From: Candidatus Hydrogenedentota bacterium
GTDB taxonomy: Bacteria; Hydrogenedentota; Hydrogenedentia; Hydrogenedentales; SLHB01
Direction of reading: 5' to 3'
Length of the DNA stretch: 27,025 nucleotides
NCBI GenBank assembly: GCA_045863295.1
Contig: BTWA01000053.1
Location: 1-27,025 of the forward strand
Shown here piece by piece: positions 1,487 to 19,304 of this stretch. The translations under genes were made by a program, and so were the position numbers. Each line of letters opens with the position of its first letter. Position 1 is the first letter of the stretch. Below the pieces are notes generated by a model. That model ran no database searches and had not been told where the DNA came from. It worked only from the letters and a program-made list of their open reading frames with translations.

Positions 1487-2215
1487 ATGGAATTCATGAG
1501 CGATTTGCGAACCGCGTTTCATCTGGCATTCGCACCCAAACGCGGCGCATCGCATGCGGAGCGTCTAGAGCGGTTTTACGCACGTCAAGCCGCGGACTAC
1601 GATCGATTCCGCGAGCGGTTGCTCCATGGCCGAAAAGAAATGTTCGCCGCCTTGCAGATGCCGGACAACGGGACGTGGATCGATATGGGAGGCGGTACAG
1701 GGGCCAGCCTGGAATTTGCAGGCAATCGGATCGCAACGTTGATGTCTGCCACGGTGGTGGACCTCTCTCCCTCCCTATTGAATCTCGCACGAAAGCGAAT
1801 TGCGGTTCGGGGATGGAAAAACTGTGACGCAATTGAAGGCGATGTAACCACGTATAGGCCTGCGAGCAATGTAGACGCGGTGACATTCAGCTATTCGCTC
1901 ACCATGATTCCGGATTGGTTCAAGGCGATTGATCACGCCTTCGAAGTGTTAGGACCCGGCGGGTTGATCGGCGTTGTGGATTTCTATGTATCCCGCAAGC
2001 ACCCGCTGGACGACTGGAAGAAACACGGCTGGTTCACGCGCAGCTTCTGGCCGGTTTGGTTCGCCACTGACAACGTCTACCTGAGCCCGGATCACGTACC
2101 GTATCTGCACGACCGTTTCACGCCGGTACATTTCACCGAGGGCATGGGAACCGTTCCGCTTTTGGCGGGGATGAAAGTCCCCTACTATATTTTCATCGGC
2201 AGGAAACGAGGTTAA
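1487..2215 (+). CDS. btaB: BtaB-like SAM-dependent N-methyltransferase (betaine lipid synthesis)
   Basis: LERFYARQAADYDRFRERLLHGR, DMGGGTG, FSYSLTMIPDW and VVDFYV motifs; directly downstream of btaA. Confidence 0.82.
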   Translation: MEFMSDLRTAFHLAFAPKRGASHAERLERFYARQAADYDRFRERLLHGRKEMFAALQMPDNGTWIDMGGGTGASLEFAGNRIATLMSATVVDLSPSLLNLARKRIAVRGWKNCDAIEGDVTTYRPASNVDAVTFSYSLTMIPDWFKAIDHAFEVLGPGGLIGVVDFYVSRKHPLDDWKKHGWFTRSFWPVWFATDNVYLSPDHVPYLHDRFTPVHFTEGMGTVPLLAGMKVPYYIFIGRKRG

Positions 2216-2218
2216 CGC

Positions 2219-2701
2219 TCATGCCTGCCCTCCGAGCCCCGCGGTGGATTCCAGTTCGGAAAGGAATCTCTGAATGGCCTTGGCATCCTTCGGCGCGACG
2301 TGCGTGAACTGACCGCCGATCGCGTAGCCGCCTTTCGCCTCGACAGTCTTGGTCCAGCGGGCTTCGGCCAGCGCTTCGATTTTCGTTCCATCGTAAAGTT
2401 CAATGGAAAGCCGGAATGGCTGGCCAATGGCCAAAGCATGCTGCACAAACAGGGAAACGCCGCTCGAGCTCAGGTCAAGCACGCGGCCTTTCATTCTCGA
2501 TTTTGAGACCTTCCACTCGCTGGACCCGCCGGCGGCAGTGGCCATTTCCAAATCGACATAGGCATGGCACATGTGCCGGATGGCGTGGCGTTTTTGCCGC
2601 TTCTGGTCGCTCTGCACCATGAGCGTCTTTTGGTCGCTCTGGGCTAGCGTCAAAAGGTCCCGGTCAGCCTTACGGCGCACGATCTTTCTGCGTTCATCCA
2701 T
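2219..2701 (-). CDS. PilZ domain protein (c-di-GMP receptor)
   Basis: RxxxR (QKRHAIR) and D/NxSxxG (DLSSSG) motifs, with C-terminal GGQF. ATG 2701 chosen as start. Confidence 0.75.
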   Translation of the reverse strand: MDERRKIVRRKADRDLLTLAQSDQKTLMVQSDQKRQKRHAIRHMCHAYVDLEMATAAGGSSEWKVSKSRMKGRVLDLSSSGVSLFVQHALAIGQPFRLSIELYDGTKIEALAEARWTKTVEAKGGYAIGGQFTHVAPKDAKAIQRFLSELESTAGLGGQA

Positions 2702-3089
2702 GGTATTTGCGTATCCACCCCTGTTGCACAGCCGTAGTCCGGGTCCGCGTCCGTTCGCGGCTGCCCATTGCGACACCGCCTTCAGGAATTTGATGACGCC
2801 GTGCCACGGCCTAAGCGTAGCAATTCAGTGGGGCCATTTGCACGATTCCCCGCGTACCGGTTCTGTTCGGGGGTATACCGCTACCTTTGAGAATCGAGCG
2901 GGGCAAGCGATGTAGAGCATGCGGAAGCCATTCCCTGAACTGCCACGCAATGTAAGCAATAGTCCTACAGGAATCAGAAACGCGTTGCTGTACTCTAGTC
3001 GAAGCCAACAGATGTGAAACACATTCATTGCCGATTTCGATCGTATGTGCGCAGACTTCATCGGGCCAATACAACGAGGGAGACAGGGC

Positions 3090-4880
3090 ATGTTCAGACA
3101 GTCGTGGGCGTTGTGGTCAAGGTTGATTGTCATATTCCTGTTGGCGATGGCGGGGCATTCGGTACTCGCCGATCCGCCTGCATTGCAAACCGTGGTTACT
3201 TCGATACCGGCATCGTCGCCGGATGATAGCGGCAATCCGGTGTCGCTGGACGCGGAAGTCATCGTCCCAATTCTCGAATACGCCGTTCCCGGTGTCATTT
3301 GGAACCATGGATTCGGCGGGCACAAGGGAAACGATCGAGCCATTCGTGAGCGGCTGGCACAACGCGGTTACGTTGTCCTTTCCTACTCGTCGCGCGGATT
3401 CGGGGATACGCCAGGCCAGGTGGACCTGATGGGCCCTAAAGAGCAACAAGATTTGATTGACGCCGTGAATTGGCTCATTGATCCCGGCAATCCGATTGTT
3501 GGGGGCGCGGTCATCCCGGACTCAATCGGGCAAGTGGGCGCCAGTTACGGCGGCCTTCACGCGTGGTCGCTTGCGCGTTCTGGCCATCCGGCCGTTAGAA
3601 CGGTAGTGCCGATCGCCACGGCCACCAATCTCTACGAGGCGATAGTGCCCTACGATGTAGCCATGCTTGTCTGGCCGGTGGGATTCTATGCAACAGGGTT
3701 CGTGCCCGAGGAAAACAACTACTCCGCAACCTTTCACCAAATCGTTCTGGAAATGGTCAGCGGGGTCAACATGCCGCATGTGTACAATGAACTGACCGCG
3801 CGCGGCATGACCGGACGGTGGGACGACGTGGACATTCCCGTGTTTGTCATTCAAGGCATTAACGACAGCTTATTTCCCGCGAATCCCGGCATGAAAGCCT
3901 TCCAGGAATTGCGGTCGCGCGGCATTGAGACGCGACTATATCTTGGCGGTATCGGCCATCCGCCCGCCGTGGGCGATGGACCCGAGATCGAACGGCTCTA
4001 CGATCAAGTGCTTCAATGGCTTGATCGGCACTTGAAAGGCGCGCCGGAATCCGAGACGCCGCTGATCAACACCTCAGATATCGAGATTGCCAATACGGGC
4101 TATGTCAATAGCCACTGGGATGGCACGGTGCGGTACGCCAATTCCATTTCTACTCCGGGCCGCACGTATTACCTCAAGGCGACATCGCCGTTTGGAGGAA
4201 CCTTGTCAACCACGCCCCCGCTACCGCTATTGACGCCTCCTCTGCCGATGATCAATACCTATGCCGGATCAGGATATCTGGATGAACCTGTAACCAGTGA
4301 GTTGCTCCTGGGGCTCGGCCTGCCCTTGCCTAATCTCTCGCAGATTCCGGGGGTATTGACGTTTGAGACCGCCCCGTTTACCAGTGCCAACGCGATAGAT
4401 ATCGCGGGGATTCCCACGTTTAATTTGAAAGTAATCAGCATTCACCAATTGCCTGTAGGCGCCCCGGGGTTATTGGCAGCGTTTCAGGCAGATCCGAAAA
4501 TATGGGACGTTGATCCGGCAGGCAACGCGACACTCATTTCACGCGGGGCATTCAGCGAACCGGTGAATTCCGCGCCGCTTGTCGCTTCCGCGTTGCACAC
4601 CGCGAGTTTCGAGTCGTTTGCCCTGTTTTACACGTTCCAACCGGGACACCGCCTGCGAATTACCTTGTCTACCGAAGATGCGCCGTACCTTCGGCCCACG
4701 ACCAATCCCTTTATCGTTACTATACATCCGGGGTCAAAGGTGACTTTTCCGACGGGATCGTGGCTGAGTGCTCCGGATCAAGTGGCCACAGTGCCGGATC
4801 CGGAACCGGTCATCCCCCCCACCGTGTTCGAGGGACTGATGTCCGTGCAGGAGTTGGTTTTCGATTTCCTTGGCGTATAG
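3090..4880 (+). CDS. Secreted CocE/NonD family alpha/beta hydrolase (peptidase S15-like)
   Basis: Signal peptide, HGFGG, SRGFG, nucleophile GASYGG, QGINDSLF, GGIGH and C-terminal PGHRLRITLS typical of CocE/PepX_C; GGAG-type SD before ATG 3090. Confidence 0.8.
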   Translation: MFRQSWALWSRLIVIFLLAMAGHSVLADPPALQTVVTSIPASSPDDSGNPVSLDAEVIVPILEYAVPGVIWNHGFGGHKGNDRAIRERLAQRGYVVLSYSSRGFGDTPGQVDLMGPKEQQDLIDAVNWLIDPGNPIVGGAVIPDSIGQVGASYGGLHAWSLARSGHPAVRTVVPIATATNLYEAIVPYDVAMLVWPVGFYATGFVPEENNYSATFHQIVLEMVSGVNMPHVYNELTARGMTGRWDDVDIPVFVIQGINDSLFPANPGMKAFQELRSRGIETRLYLGGIGHPPAVGDGPEIERLYDQVLQWLDRHLKGAPESETPLINTSDIEIANTGYVNSHWDGTVRYANSISTPGRTYYLKATSPFGGTLSTTPPLPLLTPPLPMINTYAGSGYLDEPVTSELLLGLGLPLPNLSQIPGVLTFETAPFTSANAIDIAGIPTFNLKVISIHQLPVGAPGLLAAFQADPKIWDVDPAGNATLISRGAFSEPVNSAPLVASALHTASFESFALFYTFQPGHRLRITLSTEDAPYLRPTTNPFIVTIHPGSKVTFPTGSWLSAPDQVATVPDPEPVIPPTVFEGLMSVQELVFDFLGV

Positions 4881-4900
4881 CGGCTGATTCAAGCATCAAC

Positions 4901-4926
4901 GCGCCGTCCGGTTCGCCGGACGGCGC
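4901..4926. terminator. Hairpin between convergent genes (likely bidirectional terminator)
   Basis: Perfect 11-bp stem GCGCCGTCCGG-TTCG-CCGGACGGCGC; U-tracts are weak. Confidence 0.65.
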
Positions 4927-4961
4927 TTCTAATTTCCAGGGAGTGTGCGGAGCAGTCGAGA

Positions 4962-6329
4962 TTACTCCAGGGAATGCAGACGATCGCAAGCCCGGTGCGC
5001 GCTTAATACGCAGTCGTTCAGGCCGACCCCGCGGTAGGCATTGCCGGCAAAGACCAACCCGGGATGCCGTTGTTCCCCCGCTTCGATGGCCGCGAGTAAC
5101 TCACCATGATGCAGCAAATACTGTGGAATCCCCGCGAAGTGCCTGTAAATCCGTACGAAATCGGGATCGCCGTCAATCTTCAGCAGGGGATGAATCTCAC
5201 GCTTGAGGCAATCTACCATTCCAGAGTCGGTCATGCGAACGGCATCGGGATCCGTGTAGCCGCCGTACATGCTGCGCAGCATAACCCAACCGTCGGGCGC
5301 CTGGTGCGGAAACAGCGAGGAGGTCCAAATGCACCCAAGCGTTCGCTTGCCTTCCTTTCGCGGGATGAGGAAACCAAAACCGTTCATGTCATGCCCAACG
5401 CGATCGCGTTTGTACGCGGTGCACAATACCGCAATGTCGGCATAGGCAATTCGACCCAGAGCGGCGCTCAATGCCGTATCGAAACCGTTGATCATGGACG
5501 CGGCGGCATAGGCCGGCACGGCCACTACAACAGACTTCGTTTCCAAGGCAGGGCCGTCTGTAGTGGATACGCGGAATCCTTGCAACAAGCGCTCAATCGT
5601 GGTTACCGCAGCGCCGCTGCGGTAATGCTCACCCAATGCGACCTGGGCCGTGGAGGCGACCTGACCCATGCCCTGCTTCAACGTGGTCAGCGTACCTCCA
5701 GGTCCCATGGCGCTCGCGCCCTTATTCTCGCGCCGCTTTGCCTTGAGCGCCTTGTAAAGTCCGCCGTAATCCCGTTCCATGGCGGCCATCCGGGGAAAAC
5801 AGTGTTCTAGAGACAGTTGTTTGGCATCACCGCCGAATATGCCCGTCACCATCGGGGATACCATCGTATCCGCCGCTTCGGCGCCTATACGACGCGCGGC
5901 AAAATCCCAGATGGTCTCCGGACGGCCATCGGCCTTCTGCCGAATAAGCGGCTCGCCCATCAGTCTCAACCGCCCTGGGATCGACAACAAGGGCGACACG
6001 AAAAACTTCGGTGGACCGGCAATTTCGATGAGCCGGCCGTCTTTCATGATGAATCGTTTCGCGGCAAGCGCATTTGCCTTGATCAGGTCGGAGGACAAAC
6101 CCAGATCGTCCATCCATTGGAGCGTCCTGGGTTCGCGATCGAGAAACCCGTTGGGTCCCCAGTCGCACAGAAATCCGTCAACGGCGTCGGTTCGGGCAGT
6201 TCCGCCGGGATTGGTATTGGCCTCCAACACCGCAACGGCGCCCGCACCGAGCCTGCGCTGGAGGTAGAATGCGGTGCAGAGTCCTGTCACTCCACCGCCA
6301 ATGACCACTGCTTGATATTCGGAAGGCAT
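4962..6329 (-). CDS. hemY: FAD-dependent protoporphyrinogen oxidase (HemY family)
   Basis: GGGVTG FAD motif, DWGPNGFL, GFGFLIP, IPQY and AGNAYRGVGLNDCV; 4 bp downstream of hemN. Confidence 0.9.
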   Translation of the reverse strand: MPSEYQAVVIGGGVTGLCTAFYLQRRLGAGAVAVLEANTNPGGTARTDAVDGFLCDWGPNGFLDREPRTLQWMDDLGLSSDLIKANALAAKRFIMKDGRLIEIAGPPKFFVSPLLSIPGRLRLMGEPLIRQKADGRPETIWDFAARRIGAEAADTMVSPMVTGIFGGDAKQLSLEHCFPRMAAMERDYGGLYKALKAKRRENKGASAMGPGGTLTTLKQGMGQVASTAQVALGEHYRSGAAVTTIERLLQGFRVSTTDGPALETKSVVVAVPAYAAASMINGFDTALSAALGRIAYADIAVLCTAYKRDRVGHDMNGFGFLIPRKEGKRTLGCIWTSSLFPHQAPDGWVMLRSMYGGYTDPDAVRMTDSGMVDCLKREIHPLLKIDGDPDFVRIYRHFAGIPQYLLHHGELLAAIEAGEQRHPGLVFAGNAYRGVGLNDCVLSAHRACDRLHSLE

Positions 6330-6333
6330 GGAA

Positions 6334-7734
6334 TCACACAGTCCGGGAGTAGCGCACAGGCGAATCCGGACGCTTCAGATAGGCATCAAAGGCCATGGCA
6401 ATATTGCGCACGAAAATCTGGCCCAGGGGCAGCACGTCGACGGCTGCATCCGTTGCGGCGATCATGCGGTCTTGTTCAAAGCCCGCGAGAGATTCGCGCT
6501 CCCGTTCAAAATACGATTCGAACGCCACCCCAAAGCGCGATTCGAACGCGGCGAAATCGATATGGAAATTGCACATCAGTTCGCGAATGACCCACGCACG
6601 AATACGGTCGTCGTCCGTTAACTCGCAACCGCACGCGGTGGGGAACTCCCCTTCATCAATAGCCTCGTAATAGCGGGATAGCTTCTTTTCGTTCTGCGCA
6701 AAACACCCGCCCACCTCGCCGATGGCTGACGTACCCACGGCGACCATGTCGGGCGCATGGGTCACCGTATATCCCATAAAATTACGATACAAACGGCGCT
6801 GTTCCACGGCTTGGCACAATTCATCGTGGGGCATGGCGAAATGATCCATGCCGATTGCAACGTAGCCGCCTTTGACAAACCCTTCGCGTGCTTCCGCAAA
6901 TAAGGCGTACTTGGTCTCGGTATCCGGGAGTTCTGATGGCTCGATATGTTTCTGGTTGCGCAGCCGATCAGGAAGGTAGGCGTAACTGTAAAGGGCCAGC
7001 CGATCGGGACGGATATCCAGGATCTTCTGTACTGTGTCTTTCCATCGTTCCGGGCGTTGGGAAGGGAGCCCATACACCAAATCGATGTTGATACCCGTGA
7101 ACCCGGCCTGTCTGCACACTCCAAACAGATGCCGGGTCTGTTCCTCGGTTTGGTTTCGATGGATCGCGCACTGAACCTCGGGATCGAGATCTTGAACACC
7201 CATACTGACCCGATTGAATCCAAGGTCGCGCAAGAGTCCTACTTGGGCCTCCGTGGTCACTCGGGGGTCCATCTCAAGTGCGACTTCTGCTTCCGGGAGA
7301 AACGCAAAGTGCGCGCTTACCGCATTGTGCAACCGCTGGATTTGGTCCAGATCCAGAAACGTTGGCGTACCGCCTCCCCAGTGCATCTGAGCAAGGCCGC
7401 GGCGGTTACCCAAGCCCGTGGCCAGCATGGACAATTCTTTTTCAACATAGTCCAGATAGGTGTCGGCTAACCCTTCTTTGCGGCCGATTATCACATTACA
7501 TCCGCAAAACGCACACCGTTCCTGGCAAAAGGGAATATGGATGTACAGGGCCAATGGATCGTCCGGAGTCAATGACGCCTTCTTCAAGGCCTGCCGGTAC
7601 GCGGACGAACCAAACGATTCGCGCCACATCGGCGCAGTGGGGTAACTCGTATAACGGGGACCCGGCCGATCGTTTTTACGCAGCATTTCCGGCGTGACGG
7701 CAATGGCTACCCTGTCCTCATTGTAAATCGGCAT
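6334..7734 (-). CDS. hemN: Oxygen-independent coproporphyrinogen III oxidase (radical SAM)
   Basis: GPRYTSYPTA, YIHIPFCQERCAFCGC, HWGGGTPT, IGMDHFA and RNFMGY motifs. Start taken at ATG 7734 (GAGG SD upstream) rather than 7878. Confidence 0.93.
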   Translation of the reverse strand: MPIYNEDRVAIAVTPEMLRKNDRPGPRYTSYPTAPMWRESFGSSAYRQALKKASLTPDDPLALYIHIPFCQERCAFCGCNVIIGRKEGLADTYLDYVEKELSMLATGLGNRRGLAQMHWGGGTPTFLDLDQIQRLHNAVSAHFAFLPEAEVALEMDPRVTTEAQVGLLRDLGFNRVSMGVQDLDPEVQCAIHRNQTEEQTRHLFGVCRQAGFTGINIDLVYGLPSQRPERWKDTVQKILDIRPDRLALYSYAYLPDRLRNQKHIEPSELPDTETKYALFAEAREGFVKGGYVAIGMDHFAMPHDELCQAVEQRRLYRNFMGYTVTHAPDMVAVGTSAIGEVGGCFAQNEKKLSRYYEAIDEGEFPTACGCELTDDDRIRAWVIRELMCNFHIDFAAFESRFGVAFESYFERERESLAGFEQDRMIAATDAAVDVLPLGQIFVRNIAMAFDAYLKRPDSPVRYSRTV

Positions 7735-8039
7735 GAATGTGGAAAGACCTCGCATCGTAATTCGACTCCGGTATTTTATACTCAAATCCAGCGTGAAGTC
7801 GAAGCAATTCAGACCAGGAGGCTTGCCGCAAAATGACAGGTCCACACTGCGAAACCTGCAATACTGATCCGCCAGCATGGTATTTTAGGCAAGAGACCTA
7901 ATTGCCAACAACAAATGTGTATATTGATATCTATTAGAATAGTTAAATTATTTGTCGCGTTTTAACCCATTTGGGATGCCTGAAAACACTATCACTACAG
8001 AGCGATTACCGCAAATTACTGGGTATGCGGGATTTTTAC

Positions 8040-8068
8040 TTGCATAAAATTAATATTCCCGGTATAAT
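8040..8068 (+). promoter_or_regulatory. sigma70-type promoter
   Basis: TTGCAT (8040-45), 17-bp spacer, TATAAT (8063-68), in an AT-rich intergenic region. Confidence 0.7.
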
Positions 8069-8079
8069 CGGTCTGTAGC

Positions 8080-9057
8080 ATGACCAAGGGACACTTAGCA
8101 TACGTTGGGAGCGAGACCCTGCGAACCGTGGGGGAGCCGGCGAGTCGGCTCCACGCCTCGGTGCATCCTGCATCCACGTTGGAACGCAGCCAGAGCGGCG
8201 GGGCCGACGCTTCCGTACTATCTACGAACGGAAAACGGACGGTAGAGAAGTCTTACGGAATGCTCGAAGTTGGCGTCGTGTCGGTAACATTTCGAAACTT
8301 CGGACCGCGGGATGTAATCAAGCACGCCCTGGCAGGGCGGGTTTCGCACATCGAGTGGTCCGCGGATCGTCATGTCCCGACGGGCGGGCTGGACGCGGCT
8401 CGGGAAGTGGGCGCCATGACTCGAGATGCCGGTCTCTCAATTGCAGGCTACGGGGCCTACTACAAAGCGGGCCTGCCTCCCATGGATGCCCAGCCGTTTG
8501 AGCCGGTGCTGGAAACCGCCATGGCATTGGGCGCCACCAACATCCGCATCTGGGCCGGTGACAAGGGGTCTTCGGGAGCGCGTGAGAGTTACTGGAACGC
8601 AGTGGTTCAGGACACGTTACGCATCGCGGATTTGGCGCAGTCGGCAGGTCTGACCATCTCCTTTGAATTCCAAAGCAACACATTGAACGACACGGGCACC
8701 AGTTCAGAGCGCCTGATGCAGGCTATCAAACATCCGGCTGTCTTTACCTATTGGCAACCGGACAGCCGCCTGCTCCCCGACGAGCGGCTGGAAGGCCTAA
8801 ACCAGATTCGGCCCTGGCTGAAGAACATACATGTATTTCACTGGTCGGACGGCAGACGCCAAGCATTTGCCGATGGCGAAAAAGAGTGGCTGACCTACTT
8901 GACCTCGGCCGCACACTGCAATTCGACTCGAGTCTGCCTCATCGAGTTTGTAAAAGACGATTTGCTTACCAATTTTGTTGCCGATGCCAACATACTCCGT
9001 TCGATCGTAACCCAGGCCAATGGCCGGGTGAAACGAGTCGAATCCACTCAACGATAA
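8080..9057 (+). CDS. Sugar phosphate isomerase/epimerase, xylose-isomerase-like TIM barrel
   Basis: SVTFR, IEWSADRHVP, IRIWAG, TYWQP, NIHVFHW and LIEFV motifs. The conserved domain appears to begin near ATG 8260, which may be the true start. Confidence 0.75.
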   Translation: MTKGHLAYVGSETLRTVGEPASRLHASVHPASTLERSQSGGADASVLSTNGKRTVEKSYGMLEVGVVSVTFRNFGPRDVIKHALAGRVSHIEWSADRHVPTGGLDAAREVGAMTRDAGLSIAGYGAYYKAGLPPMDAQPFEPVLETAMALGATNIRIWAGDKGSSGARESYWNAVVQDTLRIADLAQSAGLTISFEFQSNTLNDTGTSSERLMQAIKHPAVFTYWQPDSRLLPDERLEGLNQIRPWLKNIHVFHWSDGRRQAFADGEKEWLTYLTSAAHCNSTRVCLIEFVKDDLLTNFVADANILRSIVTQANGRVKRVESTQR

Positions 9058-10523
9058 TTGCTCGCCCACCGCTCCATCCGTTGATCCTCGTTTCGCATTC
9101 TCCATCGCAGCAGACGCTGGCAAAAATCCAGAACAACGCCGCTGTACAATGGGTCTCCAGCACGGTTCTCCAGTTCCCGGGGGTCTCGTTCGAGGTCGAA
9201 TAGAATGGACGGCAAATCCTCAACGCCAAATTGCACATACTTGAACCGTTCGTCCCGAATGACCCACAAAAGGCAGGTCTCCGGATCGTCCCGGCCAATG
9301 GCCGCAAAGGCGCGAAAGTCGAATTCAAAGTGAATCTCCGCACGGTGGCGCGCGGTTTCGCCGTACAAGAGGGACTTCAGGCTCTTGCCTTGAAAGCCTT
9401 CGGGAATGGGCAGACCCAGGCAATCCACTATCGTCGGTGCAACGTCTATGGCTTCCACAAGACCGGAGTAGACGCTTCCCCGCGACCCATCGGCCCGGGT
9501 ATCCGGATCGCGCACGATCAAGGGAACGTGCATCCCTCCGTCACAATAGTGGCCTTTGTCCTGGAGATAGTGGTCGCCAAGATATTCGCCGTGGTCGGAC
9601 ATGAAGACGATGATCGTATTGTCCCAGTGCCCTGAACATTTCAATGCTTCGACCAGCCTCCCGACGCATTCATCCACTTCCGAAATCATGCCATAATAAT
9701 TCGCCTGCGTTTCCTGAAGATCTCGACATTCAGAGAGAAGCGGATTGGGCCGGACTCGCCGCATATAGGGGTGAGGATCCCGCAGTTCCGCTTCGCACCG
9801 TGCGGGCGCGGGCATGGCTTGAGGTTCGTATAGGGCATGGTACGGCGCAGCACAGATACGTGGAGGATGCGGCTTAATCAAGTTCAGGTTGAGAAACCAA
9901 CCGGGCTGCTTCGCATCGGCAATCCACTCGATTGCCCGGCCCGTGAGATAGCCGCACGTGCTGTCTTCGGATCGATAGTGTGCGGGGTATCGCAACGGCA
10001 GATGGCCGTTCAAACCGGTATCCGGCACGTCATACTCGGTACTGATACAGGGACCGCACAACGCATCCGGATACCCTTTTTGGCGCAGATACTCGAAGTA
10101 AGCGGGAGAGTGGTATTCGAAGTATTCCCCCACATCAAATCCGGGCAGTGCATTATCGTAGGCCAGAGAGGTGCGACGAGGATCGTCATCGGGGAGAATT
10201 CGCGGGTCCACCGTGTAATCGTTGTACCCAAAGAGAACAGGGCGATACGATGCTCGCCGGACGTGCATGGCAATGTTTTCATGCGCATCCGCCAACGGCG
10301 TGAAATTTCGGACCGCGCGTGTGGAACAGAGATACCGGCTGGTGTACATGGACATGCGGCTGGGACCGCATGGCGCTGTCTGGACAAAGCAGTTTTTGAA
10401 GAACACGCCGTCCCGTGCGAGCGCGTCGAGATTCGGCGTATGAATTAGGGAATTGCCCGCCACGCCAAGGCAGTCGCCCCGAAACTGATCGGAAATGATC
10501 CAGAGGACGTTTCTAGAAGTCAT
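9048..10523 (-). CDS. Sulfatase-family hydrolase, phosphonate monoester hydrolase/phosphodiesterase-like
   Basis: NVLWIISDQFRGD, TPNLD, formylglycine motif CGPSR, RAVRNFTPL, KPHPP, SDHGEYLGDH, DERFKYVQF and LFDL..DP.E resemble PMH/PehA. Confidence 0.8.
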   Translation of the reverse strand: MTSRNVLWIISDQFRGDCLGVAGNSLIHTPNLDALARDGVFFKNCFVQTAPCGPSRMSMYTSRYLCSTRAVRNFTPLADAHENIAMHVRRASYRPVLFGYNDYTVDPRILPDDDPRRTSLAYDNALPGFDVGEYFEYHSPAYFEYLRQKGYPDALCGPCISTEYDVPDTGLNGHLPLRYPAHYRSEDSTCGYLTGRAIEWIADAKQPGWFLNLNLIKPHPPRICAAPYHALYEPQAMPAPARCEAELRDPHPYMRRVRPNPLLSECRDLQETQANYYGMISEVDECVGRLVEALKCSGHWDNTIIVFMSDHGEYLGDHYLQDKGHYCDGGMHVPLIVRDPDTRADGSRGSVYSGLVEAIDVAPTIVDCLGLPIPEGFQGKSLKSLLYGETARHRAEIHFEFDFRAFAAIGRDDPETCLLWVIRDERFKYVQFGVEDLPSILFDLERDPRELENRAGDPLYSGVVLDFCQRLLRWRMRNEDQRMERWASNYR

Positions 10524-15768: not shown

Positions 15769-15808
15769 GGGCGCCCCGTCTTGACCGTGCGGGGCGCCCT
15801 TTCTATTT
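15769..15808 (+). terminator. Rho-independent terminator of sodA
   Basis: GGGCGCCCCG (15769-78) / CGGGGCGCCC (15790-99) followed by TTTCTATTT. Confidence 0.8.
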
Positions 15809-15837
15809 GCCGGGTTGCGGCCTGACTCAAACGAGTC

Positions 15838-16371
15838 TCAGGCAGTAAACCGGACGGCATAGTACAACGCCAGGTACACTTTGAGATCGACTTGCGCCCC
15901 CTCTTGGCGTTTCTGGTCCAGCCAATGCTCGGCCTCGCCGATGGGCACGTCAAACACCGCGATATCTTCATTGTGCACGCCGCCGCCTTCGGCCACTCGG
16001 GTAAGGCCGGAGGCGATGTAGACCGTTATCTGTTCCGTGCTCATGCCCGCGGACGATGGGCCTTCCGTCACAAGTAGCCAGTCGGAAGCGGTATATCCAG
16101 TCTCTTCCAGCAACTCGCGTCGTGCCGCGTCAAGCATGGGCTCGTGCTCACTGCCGGTGTCATCCCCGACAAGCCCCGCTGGAATCTCGATGACGTTCGC
16201 CTGTACGGCGGGCCGATGCTGCTCGATAAGAATTACGCTGCCATGATCGGTCAATGGAACAATCGCGACAACACCGCTACCTTTCTTTCTCTCGCAATGT
16301 TCCCAACCATCGTTATCGACGAGGCGCAAAAAACGGCCTTCCCCAAGTACACGGGACTCACCATCGGTCAT
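15838..16371 (-). CDS. NUDIX hydrolase (ADP-ribose pyrophosphatase-like)
   Basis: EIPAGLVG...AARRELLEETGY Nudix box; AAGGAG SD. Confidence 0.88.
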   Translation of the reverse strand: MTDGESRVLGEGRFLRLVDNDGWEHCERKKGSGVVAIVPLTDHGSVILIEQHRPAVQANVIEIPAGLVGDDTGSEHEPMLDAARRELLEETGYTASDWLLVTEGPSSAGMSTEQITVYIASGLTRVAEGGGVHNEDIAVFDVPIGEAEHWLDQKRQEGAQVDLKVYLALYYAVRFTA

Positions 16372-16401
16372 TTAACACTCCTTGGCTATGACTTGCGGCC
16401 A

Positions 16402-16761
16402 TCAGGATTGGCCGGGTAATCCGGACAGTTCAAAGACCGGCCTGATTTCGACTGTACCCTTTAGGGCGCCCGGTATCCGGGCTGCGATTTCGACGGCCTC
16501 GTCGAGATGGGCTACGTCGACGAGATAATATCCGCCCAATTGTTCGGCTGTTTCGGCGAACGGGCCGTCAACGACGATTCGCTTGCCGTCGCGGATACGA
16601 ATGCTCGTTGCCGTCGTGACGGAGTGCAGCGGAGACGCGCCCAGGAATTGTCCTTTTTGGTGCAATTCTTGACAAAGCCTGGTGGATTCGCCCATGCACT
16701 CCATACGTTCCGCGTCCGTCCAGGCGGATTCAGCGCCGTATACCAGCAACATGTATTTCAT
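16402..16761 (-). CDS. YciI family (DGPF-domain) protein
   Basis: MKYMLLVY, DGPFAETAEQLGGYY and VEIRPV motifs; GAGG SD before ATG 16761. Confidence 0.88.
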   Translation of the reverse strand: MKYMLLVYGAESAWTDAERMECMGESTRLCQELHQKGQFLGASPLHSVTTATSIRIRDGKRIVVDGPFAETAEQLGGYYLVDVAHLDEAVEIAARIPGALKGTVEIRPVFELSGLPGQS

Positions 16762-16835
16762 CTCAACGTCCTCTAGTTGCATCAATGGTCCATTGCGTAT
16801 GCCGAACACGAATTACCGGATTGCAGGAACTTGAT

Positions 16836-16864
16836 TTGGCCTTGCAACGGCAAATTGATACTCT
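16836..16864 (+). promoter_or_regulatory. Putative promoter of the retron ncRNA-RT transcript
   Basis: TTGGCC (16836-41), 17-bp spacer, TACTCT (16859-64) with extended -10 TG at 16856-57; predicted start near 16871, just before the first arm of the inverted repeat. Confidence 0.5.
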
Positions 16865-16872
16865 GAATGTAA

Positions 16873-16975
16873 CTTGCCTTGGCGGCGCGTTCAATTGCGC
16901 GGGCCGGCGTTTCGCCGGCCGGGTCCCATGGGCCTGTTTGAGAATCACCAGTACTCTACAGAGTAGCAAGGCAAG
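16873..16975 (+). ncRNA. Putative retron msr-msd non-coding RNA
   Basis: Perfect inverted repeat CTTGCCTTG (16873-81) / CAAGGCAAG (16967-75) with inner-flanking G16882 and G16966. Internal hairpins: GCGCG-ttcaat-TGCGC, GGCCGGCG-ttt-CGCCGGCC, GGGTCC-cat-GGGCCT and TACTC-taca-GAGTA. Lies 56 nt upstream of a retron-type RT. Confidence 0.72.
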
Positions 16976-17005
16976 GCGGATGCCGGCGCCAAGACCGGCA
17001 TCCGC
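16976..17005 (+). other. Perfect 11-bp hairpin between the ncRNA and the RT ribosome-binding site
   Basis: GCGGATGCCGG-cgccaaga-CCGGCATCCGC with no U-tract. Confidence 0.7.
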
Positions 17006-17031
17006 GATTCAGCCATTACCGAGGGAACGAA

Positions 17032-17892
17032 GTGTCGCTATTCAAGAGTCTGTTCAAGGGTTCCGGACACGGCGTGGACGAACTCGCGCGCCGTATGGGC
17101 ATGTCCACCCAGGAATTGACCGCCCTCGTTCCCACGTATTCCTCGTTCTCTATTCCTAAACGCAGCGGAGGCCAACGGAAAATACTTGCTCCTGACCCGG
17201 ATTTGAAGCGCGTGCAGCGGCTCGTATTGCGACGCCTTCTGGCACGGCTGCGGTCGCACCCGCATGCCGTCGGATTTGAGCATGGACATTCGATTGTGAC
17301 TAACGCGGCGTGCCACGTAAATCAGGCCGTGGTGGCCAAGCTCGATATCGTTGACTTCTTTTCCAGCACCACAGCCAAGAGAATTGAGAAATACTTTCAG
17401 TTCATCGGCTGGAACCGTGAAGCCGCCGCGTTGCTGACAAAACTGTGCACCCACGAAGGCGCCCTCCCGCAAGGCGCTCCCACCAGTCCCCGCCTGAGCA
17501 ATCTGGTGAATTTCGGACTTGATGCCGGGCTGACCGCGCTGGCCGCACAGGCCAGCGCCACGTATACTCGATATGCGGACGACATCACCTTTTCCTTTCC
17601 CAAGGACGATATCGACAGCATCAAGTTGGTTCTCAACACCGCGCGGTTGAGCCTCGTGGAAGCAGGATACAAAGTGCACGTCCGGAAAAAACGCAAAGTC
17701 CTGCGGCGGCACCAACGGCAGCAAGTAACTGGCCTTGTCGTAAACCAAAAAGTTCAATTGCCGCGCAAGACGCGACGCTGGCTTCGCGCAGTGAGGTACC
17801 GCGCAGTGAATGGTGCCGAAGCGACGCTATCGCCAGCACAGATCGCAGGATGGGATGCCCTGGAACGGATGATTTCCTCACAACGTGGCTGA
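17032..17892 (+). CDS. Retron-type reverse transcriptase
   Basis: IPKRSGGQRKILAP, region X NAACH (NAxxH), DIVDFF, LPQGAPTSP, catalytic YADD and region Y QQVTGLVVN; GTG start with GAGGGA SD at 17021-26. Confidence 0.92.
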   Translation: MSLFKSLFKGSGHGVDELARRMGMSTQELTALVPTYSSFSIPKRSGGQRKILAPDPDLKRVQRLVLRRLLARLRSHPHAVGFEHGHSIVTNAACHVNQAVVAKLDIVDFFSSTTAKRIEKYFQFIGWNREAAALLTKLCTHEGALPQGAPTSPRLSNLVNFGLDAGLTALAAQASATYTRYADDITFSFPKDDIDSIKLVLNTARLSLVEAGYKVHVRKKRKVLRRHQRQQVTGLVVNQKVQLPRKTRRWLRAVRYRAVNGAEATLSPAQIAGWDALERMISSQRG

Positions 17893-17898
17893 CTGCGC

Positions 17899-19248
17899 CT
17901 ATCCCTTGCTTCCATTGCGAATGCAATAGACCCGCGCGGCCGTGCGAATCAGAAGATTGTCGCCGGCGATCGCGGGGGTAGCCATGCCCATATCATCTTC
18001 CGCCAGGGTATTTTGTCCCAGCAACTCGAACGTATCGCCCGCTTTTACAACAAAAGTCTCGCCATCTTCGTTCAGACAAAAGATCTTTCCATCATACGCC
18101 CAGGGAGACGTGGTGAAACCACCGGTTGCGGGAAATTTCTGCTGCTCGTAAATGAGTGAGCCGTCTTTGGCGTTATAGCAGGAAAACAGCGCGCGATCGT
18201 AGAGAATGTACATGCGGTCGCCGTACACCAACGTCGAGGGATTGTACGGTGCGGCCAAGGGTTGCGCCCACGCCACGAATTCGTTCGACGTTTGTCCCTC
18301 GGCCAACGATATGTCACCGCTGGCGCCGGGCTTAATTGCGAATACGGGCCGTTTTTTGTCGCGCACGTACCCCGAACTCAGGTATAGGAGCCCGTCCGCG
18401 GAATAAGGCGTGGCAATTGTAATGCTCGACATGCCCTTCAAGGACCATAGTTCTTTACCGTTGAGATCATACGATCGGGTGGCCCGAGTTCCCGGTGTCA
18501 CAATTTCAGTGCGTTGGTCGTTCACCCAAACATACGGCGTTGACCAATTGGACTTCTCTTCCCGCACAACCCGCCAAATCTCATTACCGGTCTTCTTGTC
18601 CAGCGCCCACAAATAGGATTCCTCGTCGTTGTCATTGACAATATAAAGCCGATCTTCATGCAGCACAGGCGATGCCGCCGTCCCCCAGCCAAACCGCGTC
18701 TTTTGCTGTTTTACCGGCCTTTCCCAAACAATATTGCCTTTGAAATCAAGGCACCAGAGTCCGAGGTTTCCAAAATACGCGTAGACATGTTCACCATCGG
18801 TGACGGGAGTCTCCGAAGCATAGCTGTTCTTGATGTGGCGCGAAGCGGTGGGCTTGCCTTCGTGCACTTGCTTTTCCCAGAGAACATCGCCGGAATCCAA
18901 ATCGAGGCAATATACCTTCCACACATGGACAGAATCCGGAGCGTCCTTGCGATCGCCGCCCAAATAAAGCCCCTTCTTCGCGTCTTCAATTTCACCCTGG
19001 CTAACGACCGTTGTAAGGAACACGTTTTTGCCCCAGACCACGGGCGAAGACCAACCCCGGCCAGGCATGTCGAACTTCCACGCAACGTTTTCGGTTGTGG
19101 ACCACGTTGCGGGCAGGTTCGTACCCTCTGCGATGCCGCGCGATTCCGGACCGCGGAATTGGGGCCAATGGGTCTGGCCATTCGCATGCATGGCTGTGAA
19201 AACGCACAAGACAAAAAGGACCGTACCGGTCAAGCGTTCATAGTGCAT
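17899..19248 (-). CDS. Secreted PQQ-like beta-propeller repeat protein
   Basis: Signal peptide, WPQFRGP, GWSSPVVWG, ASETPVTDG, WSTP and ATPAIA repeats. Confidence 0.85.
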   Translation of the reverse strand: MHYERLTGTVLFVLCVFTAMHANGQTHWPQFRGPESRGIAEGTNLPATWSTTENVAWKFDMPGRGWSSPVVWGKNVFLTTVVSQGEIEDAKKGLYLGGDRKDAPDSVHVWKVYCLDLDSGDVLWEKQVHEGKPTASRHIKNSYASETPVTDGEHVYAYFGNLGLWCLDFKGNIVWERPVKQQKTRFGWGTAASPVLHEDRLYIVNDNDEESYLWALDKKTGNEIWRVVREEKSNWSTPYVWVNDQRTEIVTPGTRATRSYDLNGKELWSLKGMSSITIATPYSADGLLYLSSGYVRDKKRPVFAIKPGASGDISLAEGQTSNEFVAWAQPLAAPYNPSTLVYGDRMYILYDRALFSCYNAKDGSLIYEQQKFPATGGFTTSPWAYDGKIFCLNEDGETFVVKAGDTFELLGQNTLAEDDMGMATPAIAGDNLLIRTAARVYCIRNGSKG

Positions 19249-19304
19249 GGTGGGGGGCTCCAAGTTGTGGTTTTGGCCATAGTCAATGAATCGCGAAGCT
19301 GCAG

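Follow-up and report, generated by a model that had tools for sequence, protein, structure and literature searches.

Retrons that consist of a non-coding RNA (ncRNA) and a reverse transcriptase (RT) without a partner protein have already been described as such. In the available text of Mestre et al. 2020, these orphan retrons are the Ec107/Retron-Eco5 branch of RT clade 2, and clade 11; their hosts are said there to be mostly devoid of homologues of the known retron effectors and their function is left open. This was the only relevant description of effector-less retrons found in the literature, the SPIRE survey of 2026 (PMC13712802) being reached through Planctomycetota and Hydrogenedentota. 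The locus presented here belongs to a Candidatus Hydrogenedentota bacterium and lies on contig BTWA01000053.1. The window, meaning the whole 27,025-nt stretch of this contig that was analysed, comes from a genome of 6.3 Mb that is 96% complete, and positions are given on its forward strand. Positions 16870-17892 probably constitute a working retron cassette of about 1.02 kb whose RT belongs to an unnamed clade, in which the stand-alone ncRNA and RT are the normal arrangement and would act as a sensing module without a linked effector.

Among the named systems, type X corresponds to RT clade 7 of Mestre et al. 2020 and pairs a compact RT with an IHF-like/VHL-beta membrane protein encoded upstream of it. 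The parts of the SPIRE survey at hand place it largely in Planctomycetota and in aquatic samples. The window RT is compact as well and aligns end to end with the RT_X profile at 240 bits (residues 18-284 on profile positions 3-271 of 272), and a member of its clade, P0125, carries fused HU/IHF-type domains. A careful tree of 50 rows recovers the clade as monophyletic (100/97), with the single verified type X RT (L213 8070-9005) as its sister (98/95). However, this true type X enzyme scores 361 bits on its own model, the clade stands outside on a long stem, and IHF-VHL_X is found at none of 68 immediate neighbours of clade RTs.

Type XIII, which is clade 10 of Mestre et al. and the myxobacterial Mx162/Mx65 group, is the next group out, joining at 85/79 in the careful tree. 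RT_XIII is also the top PADLOC model of the window RT, at 265.8 bits and with a match in two stretches. In contrast to the 286-residue window enzyme, true type XIII RTs have 426-514 aa with an N-terminal extension and, like true members of the other PADLOC retron RT models, reach 369-626 bits on their own model. A SWIM_XIII protein and a HEAT/ARM protein are encoded next to the Singulisphaera RT, while none is found among the neighbours of the clade RTs, and the ncRNA model of the clade matches no type XIII locus. In supplement file 5 of the SPIRE survey, the RT of one clade locus (L054) is entered as 'typeXIII, 215.8, low' confidence, without effector; since it is listed in this way, the clade has been seen before but filed under type XIII. 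The same source, in the portion available, gives an elevated low-confidence fraction for Planctomycetota. Its rows also hold Planctomycetota entries of type XIII without a SWIM neighbour, one of them named Schlesneria paludicola.

The orphan retrons share with this locus the stand-alone (msr-msd)-RT cassette. They differ in their ncRNA family and in their hosts, the present clade being found in Hydrogenedentota, Planctomycetota, Acidobacteriota and others. On the RT_Ec107-like model, the window RT scores 214 bits against 377-483 bits for members, which form a separate clade in the trees. On RT_outgroup it scores 212 bits against 394 for the representative L069, which lies outside the clade and is not a verified clade 11 member. 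The Ec107-like group, III-A, II-A and this RT_other/outgroup representative all branch further away.

Outside the retrons, DRT2 and DRT9 are two-component defence systems that need no more than an RT with its ncRNA and that act through the cDNA product. The solved RT-ncRNA complexes of both are distant fold matches of a clade RT. The likeness concerns the mode of action only: DRT2 and DRT9 belong to other RT lineages, whereas the window RT is of retron type, with an msr-msd RNA closed by a1 and a2 arms. No sign of a rolling-circle or homopolymer template was seen, although no search was aimed at it.

The first-pass annotation of this DNA had described a 286-aa RT with NAxxH, YADD and VTG motifs and without fused domain. 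All three motifs were located in the open reading frame (ORF), the first as NAACH, and RVT_1 (PF00078, residues 41-229) is its sole Pfam domain. The best 25 PADLOC matches listed for the protein are all retron RT models, many of them scoring alike at 210-240 bits. By sequence, its closest solved relative is the Ec86 RT (E = 2.7e-36), followed by those of Ec67, Ec83 and Ec78. Four orthologous RTs from other genera of the same family and order are 53-68% identical to it, and the catalytic residues are invariant across these five proteins. Over the clade, YADD is kept in 59/59 members, NAxxH in 55/59 and VTG in 53/59.

A quick tree of 82 RTs groups its 35 clade members together (Shimodaira-Hasegawa-like approximate likelihood ratio test, 100; stem 0.74) next to type XIII (support 82), and a second quick tree also supports their monophyly. 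The clade RTs stay below family level on every PADLOC retron RT model, the best score of the window RT being 266 bits. In the protein database, at least 120 stand-alone relatives of 286-427 aa, with PF00078 only, match at 348 bits or more, and a metagenome scan for closer relatives gave nothing above 63% identity. The RT clade is large and so far unnamed. That the cassette is a retron, and that its lineage is distinct, mostly without partner and placed beside types X and XIII, seems secure.

The second component is the RNA. A structured ncRNA with an a1/a2 repeat had been proposed upstream of the RT, and this holds: two fully complementary 9-nt arms enclose four hairpins (Table 1). The 226-nt stretch upstream of the RT folds at -92.5 kcal/mol (z = -3.44), and none of 200 shuffled sequences folds as well. 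No U-run follows the 3' hairpin. The covariance model R1, built from the window and the four orthologues, matches the 6.3-Mb genome once. In Rfam, the window gave no match at the gathering score and, at a relaxed threshold, a chance match only (E = 6.7). The unpaired guanosine 16882 is a candidate branch point by analogy with known retrons, and the msd would, from its position beside a2, occupy the 31 nt before that arm. Searching the genome with this predicted msd gave, besides itself, only chance words of up to 13 nt.

The upstream regions of the four orthologues align with the window over about 145 nt. RNAalifold, applied to a five-sequence MAFFT alignment that is independent of R1, gives 43 pairs, 19 of them with compensatory changes. 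R1 is found directly upstream of the RT and on the same strand in 33 of the 38 clade genome loci (the window, L021 and L026-L061). As for the five others, the contig is cut at the RT in L030 and L055, only 183 nt lie upstream in L036, and L052 and L054 give no match. Among the clade metagenome loci (L123-L147), 22/25 match, which gives the conserved upstream RNA that was looked for in homologues. When R1 was run on 40 loci with more distant retron RTs (L025, L062-L100), nothing matched at E <= 1e-5; another 12 distant retron loci gave no match at E <= 0.01. One metagenome locus, L133, has two tandem ncRNA copies (2095-2257 and 2394-2588; 55.7 and 64.3 bits) with a single RT.

In an alignment of 33 sequences fitted to R1, and hence favouring the structure, 95.2% of cells are in standard pairs, against 32-48% when the partners are slid by one to three columns. 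Double-sided changes occur in 34/43 pairs, and 0/500 shuffles reach any of five measures. The a1/a2 helix (helix 2) is paired in 100% of cells and five of its seven pairs change on both sides, while T16880, G16881 and the unpaired G16882 are individually kept in 97% or more of the sequences. Pairing in helices 3, 4 and 5 amounts to 96.9%, 99.6% and 88.4% of cells, and compensatory changes affect 4, 4 and 3 of their pairs, respectively. In the 3' hairpin (helix 7), 95.7% of cells pair and all 12 pairs change on both sides. Because of this covariation in relatives, the RNA is a feature beyond chance.

The msd region is the only part of the RNA that varies in length, from 27 to 82 nt across the 33 members, and it is always a hairpin. 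Its loop reads TCGCA, often within GTCGCAC, in many members from different phyla, while the sequence and the length of the stem vary freely, with long stems in members such as L049 and L051. The window loop, TACA, departs from this motif.

Table 1. Features of the retron cassette and of the two genes next to it.
Feature	Position	Strand	Remarks
YCII-family gene	16402-16809	-	PF03795, E = 6.1e-20; divergent; bystander
Retron ncRNA (msr-msd)	16870-17013	+	about 144 nt; covariance model R1, 134.9 bits
a1 arm	16873-16881	+	CTTGCCTTG; 9 nt, 100% complementary to 16967-16975
Unpaired G, candidate branching (priming) guanosine	16882	+	directly 3' of a1
Three msr stem-loops	16885-16900, 16902-16920, 16921-16934	+	helices 3-5 of the consensus; second one GGCCGGCG-TTT-CGCCGGCC
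Predicted msd template	16936-16966	+	single-stranded GAGAAT and hairpin 16952-16965, just 5' of a2
a2 arm	16967-16975	+	CAAGGCAAG; 9-bp closing stem with a1
3' hairpin	16976-17005	+	arms 16976-16986/16995-17005, 11 bp, 100% complementary; between a2 and RT start
Retron-type RT	17032-17892	+	286 aa, GTG start, Pfam RVT_1 only
NAACH motif	17302-17316	+	retron-type RT motif NAxxH
YADD catalytic motif	17572-17583	+	
VTG motif	17725-17733	+	
PQQ-type beta-propeller gene	17899-19263	-	PF13360, E = 2e-19; convergent to RT; probably a bystander

No effector linked to the window RT was found: the protein has no fused domain, the transcript leaves no room for a further gene, and no neighbour is conserved across 63 clade loci. 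No neighbour recurs among the four orthologue loci, nor between any of them and the window, and Pfam scans of 19 and 59 flanking proteins gave unrelated housekeeping families, none recurring. The ORFs lying up to 5 kb from the RT in the 63 loci (2551 in all; 46 loci with at least 1 kb upstream and 52 with at least 1 kb downstream; L045 and L141, at least, look like the same DNA) were clustered by BLASTP. The largest family covers 7/63 loci, the sulfatases, at varying position and strand, followed by PQQ propellers in 6/63. Many of these loci are short contigs from metagenomes or metagenome-assembled genomes. In parallel, PADLOC gave no match for 61 of 68 immediate neighbours and a generic-domain match for the seven others (cyclase, TPR repeats, ArsR-type helix-turn-helix, Ser/Thr kinase, helicase fragment, glycosidase), with no retron effector model among them. 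The stand-alone ncRNA and RT are the normal architecture of the whole clade and not a local loss. The earlier description of an intact two-component retron lacking an effector in cis is upheld, and the layout is common to the whole RT clade.

One neighbour deserves to be described on its own. In the locus of the closest genus (L021, G011:C26), a gene at 2862-7796 encodes a protein of 1644 aa that begins with a TIR domain and contains RHS repeats; the gene has the same orientation as the retron ncRNA, and 48 nt separate its end from this RNA. A congener, G110, has neither the retron nor the TIR/RHS gene at the syntenic place.

The same neighbourhood data bear on the idea of a decaying remnant, namely an ordinary tripartite retron whose effector was lost in the window genome only. 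Characterised retrons mostly come with an effector, and accessory parts are fused to the RT in rare clade members, which could speak for such an origin. Nevertheless, the effector-less layout is seen in all 63 clustered loci (the fused L213 lies outside this set), the RT is intact and conserved, and the ncRNA is conserved with covariation, so that this account is hardly credible.

It is also very improbable that the PQQ beta-propeller downstream of the RT is the missing effector or partner. A related propeller does lie within 5 kb of the RT in the six loci mentioned above (the window, L027, L028, L047, L129 and L133), none is present in 221 kb of sequence more than 4 kb away, and a second, unrelated RT of the genome is also about 5 kb from a PQQ_2 match. 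However, the six loci represent three independent contexts, with about 30% identity between them, and the arrangement differs: the propeller gene is convergent with a gap of 6 bp, lies 1.4-3.9 kb downstream on the opposite strand, or lies 100-350 nt upstream on the same strand. Moreover, no propeller is found in 57/63 loci and the family has many paralogues, the window genome alone giving 21 PQQ_2 matches. Given so many paralogues, the proximity is probably due to chance.

Within the phylum, a clade RT was detected at E <= 1e-70 in 15 of 135 genomes, the window genome included, which corresponds to 12/86 good-quality genomes and to 6/66 genera. All 15 carriers have exactly one copy. Some genera retain it, since four of the five genomes of genus g12 carry the cassette and the six carriers of family f5 all belong to genus g39. 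Relatives at 47-62% identity come from Hydrogenedentota, Planctomycetota, Acidobacteriota, Armatimonadota and Chloroflexota, with one Verrucomicrobia record, and the phyla are intermixed in the RT trees. DNA homology, between genera as well as within g12, runs from window position 16872, at the 5' end of the ncRNA, to about 90 nt before the RT stop. In g12, G011 shares with G111 and G113 the cassette only, the flanks being different, and G110 has no cassette. An empty site was sought through the propeller orthologues of G011 and G014, whose surroundings are unrelated, and in G110, whose synteny with G011 stops about 420 nt past the RT stop without a clean boundary in the compared stretch. The patchy distribution, the varying flanks and the intermixed phyla fit an accessory element that is gained, lost and moved rather than a domesticated core gene. 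The suggestion of domestication made in the first-pass annotation is not borne out by this pattern.

As a statement on function, the domestication reading keeps the host at the centre: the complex of the RT and its DNA product would have been taken over by the cell, for instance for regulation or nucleic-acid metabolism, outside defence. The housekeeping surroundings in the window and in nearly all relatives, the many neighbours without a defence-model match, the single copy per genome and the retention in some genera agree with it, and the possibility was raised for orphan retrons in what is available of Mestre et al. 2020. Against it, a core function would be expected to be more widely kept and in a stable place, while the cassette is present in a minority of genomes and genera, its phyla are intermixed, its flanks differ within one genus and one congener is without it. 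A host-serving role of this kind is accordingly regarded as rather unlikely.

The movement of the cassette also raises the question of a selfish element, in which the ncRNA and RT would persist and spread horizontally without benefit to the host. Homology that is limited to the cassette, with differing flanks, and relatives spread over five phyla plus the Verrucomicrobia record would suit this explanation. Conversely, a carrier never has more than one copy, neither integrase, transposase nor terminal repeats were seen around the cassette, and retrons are not known to mobilise themselves. Furthermore, the RT and the RNA are both under selection, because the YADD motif is kept in every member and the RNA changes are compensatory. 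Such a drifting cassette is thus improbable.

The sensing module without linked effector also has to be seen against the rare clade members with additional domains. At E <= 1e-40, 43 longer proteins of 502-2000 aa match. P0122 (1908 aa) joins an N-terminal RT, 54% identical to that of the window, to a DUF4011/SF1 helicase/REase_MTES_1575/DUF3320 part that scores 1562.8 bits on PADLOC PDC-S37 and 681 bits on Hhe. A corresponding 1913-aa ORF was found in locus L213 (G135:C29, 1731-7472), with the clade ncRNA directly upstream (7470-7641, minus strand). This RT-helicase-nuclease fusion, in which the attached protein has roughly 1600 aa, looks like an undescribed retron architecture. The same locus (1731-10326, minus strand) presents two retrons head to tail, a type X retron (IHF-VHL_X at 9025-10326 and RT_X at 8070-9005, minus strand) and then the fusion.

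Other attachments are of different kinds. P0123, P0127 and others (681-758 aa) have a conserved N-terminal multi-pass hydrophobic region of about 450 aa, while P0136, P0140, P0146, P0150 and P0134 combine a single hydrophobic helix at the N-terminus with a conserved domain of about 110 aa at the C-terminus. A Foldseek search with the AlphaFold model of P0140 (mean predicted local distance difference test score 64.6, about 80 in the C-terminal part) returned RT matches only. P0125 has two HU/IHF-type domains (PF00216), and its extension shows no BLASTP similarity to the type X effector. Since the fused variants all nest inside the clade in the trees, the stand-alone form is the common state and attachments arose several times. 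Several attachments fit the modular behaviour of retrons described in the available text of Mestre et al. 2020. A defence-type use of the module is hinted at only by rare members with a helicase-nuclease fusion, of which that in L213 lies beside a type X retron.

Partners located elsewhere in the genome were also sought. SWIM_XIII gave no match in the window genome and was absent from four of five other carriers, the fifth having a partial match far from the RT. For HEAT-ARM_XIII, the window genome had generic HEAT-repeat matches only, and the control was positive in 8/14 genomes. IHF-VHL_X was found neither in the window genome, nor in 135 genomes of the phylum, nor in four other carriers, while the same search detects the gene beside the true type X RT. 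DUF4011 was not found in the window genome. Finally, tblastn with the non-RT parts of nine fused proteins gave no match in this genome at E <= 1e-3.

How the module could work may be outlined by analogy with characterised retrons. The RT would bind the ncRNA and start synthesis at the 2'-OH of G16882, which is invariant; the short msd (about 16936-16966) would then be copied into a branched multicopy single-stranded DNA (msDNA) of small size, which would stay bound to the enzyme. The resulting RT-msDNA particle would be the sensing module without linked effector. Tentatively, it may act together with an unlinked host protein or another partner. A more doubtful option is that the particle or its cDNA acts alone. 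At a similarly speculative level, the retrons of the whole clade, widespread in Planctomycetota, Hydrogenedentota, Acidobacteriota and other environmental phyla, could be complete with two components, the RT-msDNA particle serving at once as sensor and as acting agent without any protein effector. If this were true, the helicase-nuclease, membrane and HU-like parts would be later add-ons.

Several points weigh against the sensing module without linked effector. The 61 neighbours without a defence-model match and the housekeeping setting argue against a defence island, and such surroundings fit a non-defence role equally well. The neighbour comparison relied on BLASTP (1e-5), which can miss remote similarity, on Pfam and on PADLOC, and used ORFs of at least 50 aa called mechanically by a script of our own. 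The fused forms are few, 43 at E <= 1e-40 against at least 120 stand-alone proteins at 348 bits or more, and need not reflect the role of the stand-alone ones. In the trees, which are unrooted, 'sister' means nearest neighbour, and type X is represented by one sequence only. The predicted msd hairpin of the window has 5 bp only, far shorter than in characterised retrons, and the extent of reverse transcription is for this reason a guess. In addition, no RNA sequencing run is listed with the locus, only DNA runs at contig level. Contigs of four runs, compared with 15800-19300, gave pieces at 99% identity or more that come from other sludge and bioreactor runs; they contain no junction skipping the cassette and no start or end signal.

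The surroundings of the cassette are largely as the first-pass annotation had described them. The YciI-like neighbour is indeed divergent, with 222 bases separating it from the RT ORF. Since the YCII domain begins only at residue 17 of the called ORF, the real start is probably the ATG near 16761. This gene is absent beside the RT in all other clade loci compared. On the other side, the propeller gene is convergent, and 6 bp separate its stop codon from that of the RT. Pfam scans of the 20 other large ORFs of the window gave housekeeping-type families or no family, including prolyl- and tyrosyl-tRNA synthetases (ProRS, TyrRS), superoxide dismutase (SOD), two YceI proteins, a ferredoxin and a sulfatase, and the absence of integrase and transposase among them is confirmed. 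No shift in guanine-cytosine content was seen either, the values over 16000-18400 (0.55-0.59) being at flank level. By contrast, the putative promoter found no support: a scan of 16700-18000 gave no sigma-70 consensus site, and the DNA 5' of a1 is poorly conserved between orthologues.

Other RTs occur in these genomes. The window genome contains a second one (G000:C7:182251-182865; L025 8138-9073) of 311 aa, 35% identical to the window RT. No PADLOC retron model matches this protein at E <= 1e-100, and its branch is very long. It has a XerC-type integrase upstream (L025 6138-7085), CinA downstream and the PQQ_2 match about 5 kb off. In G010, a genome of the same family, 15 RT matches have near-equal scores (E = 2.1e-5 to 2.2e-5), 13 of them in open frames of 544 aa, one of 569 aa and one of 393 aa. 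This set resembles a multi-copy retroelement, unlike the single-copy retron.

For annotation, the case indicates that best-hit typing as low-confidence type XIII hides the absence of the type XIII effector and RNA. The small RT and its RNA may be of interest for making DNA in cells, the msDNA being a prediction. Since Mestre et al. 2020 it has been asked what effector-less retrons do, and the clade adds to this question a third, large and well-delimited orphan lineage, with an ncRNA model that covaries strongly, a compact RT of 286 aa and one copy in each carrier genome. Its fused and bare members offer a natural comparison for whether the bare module senses alone.

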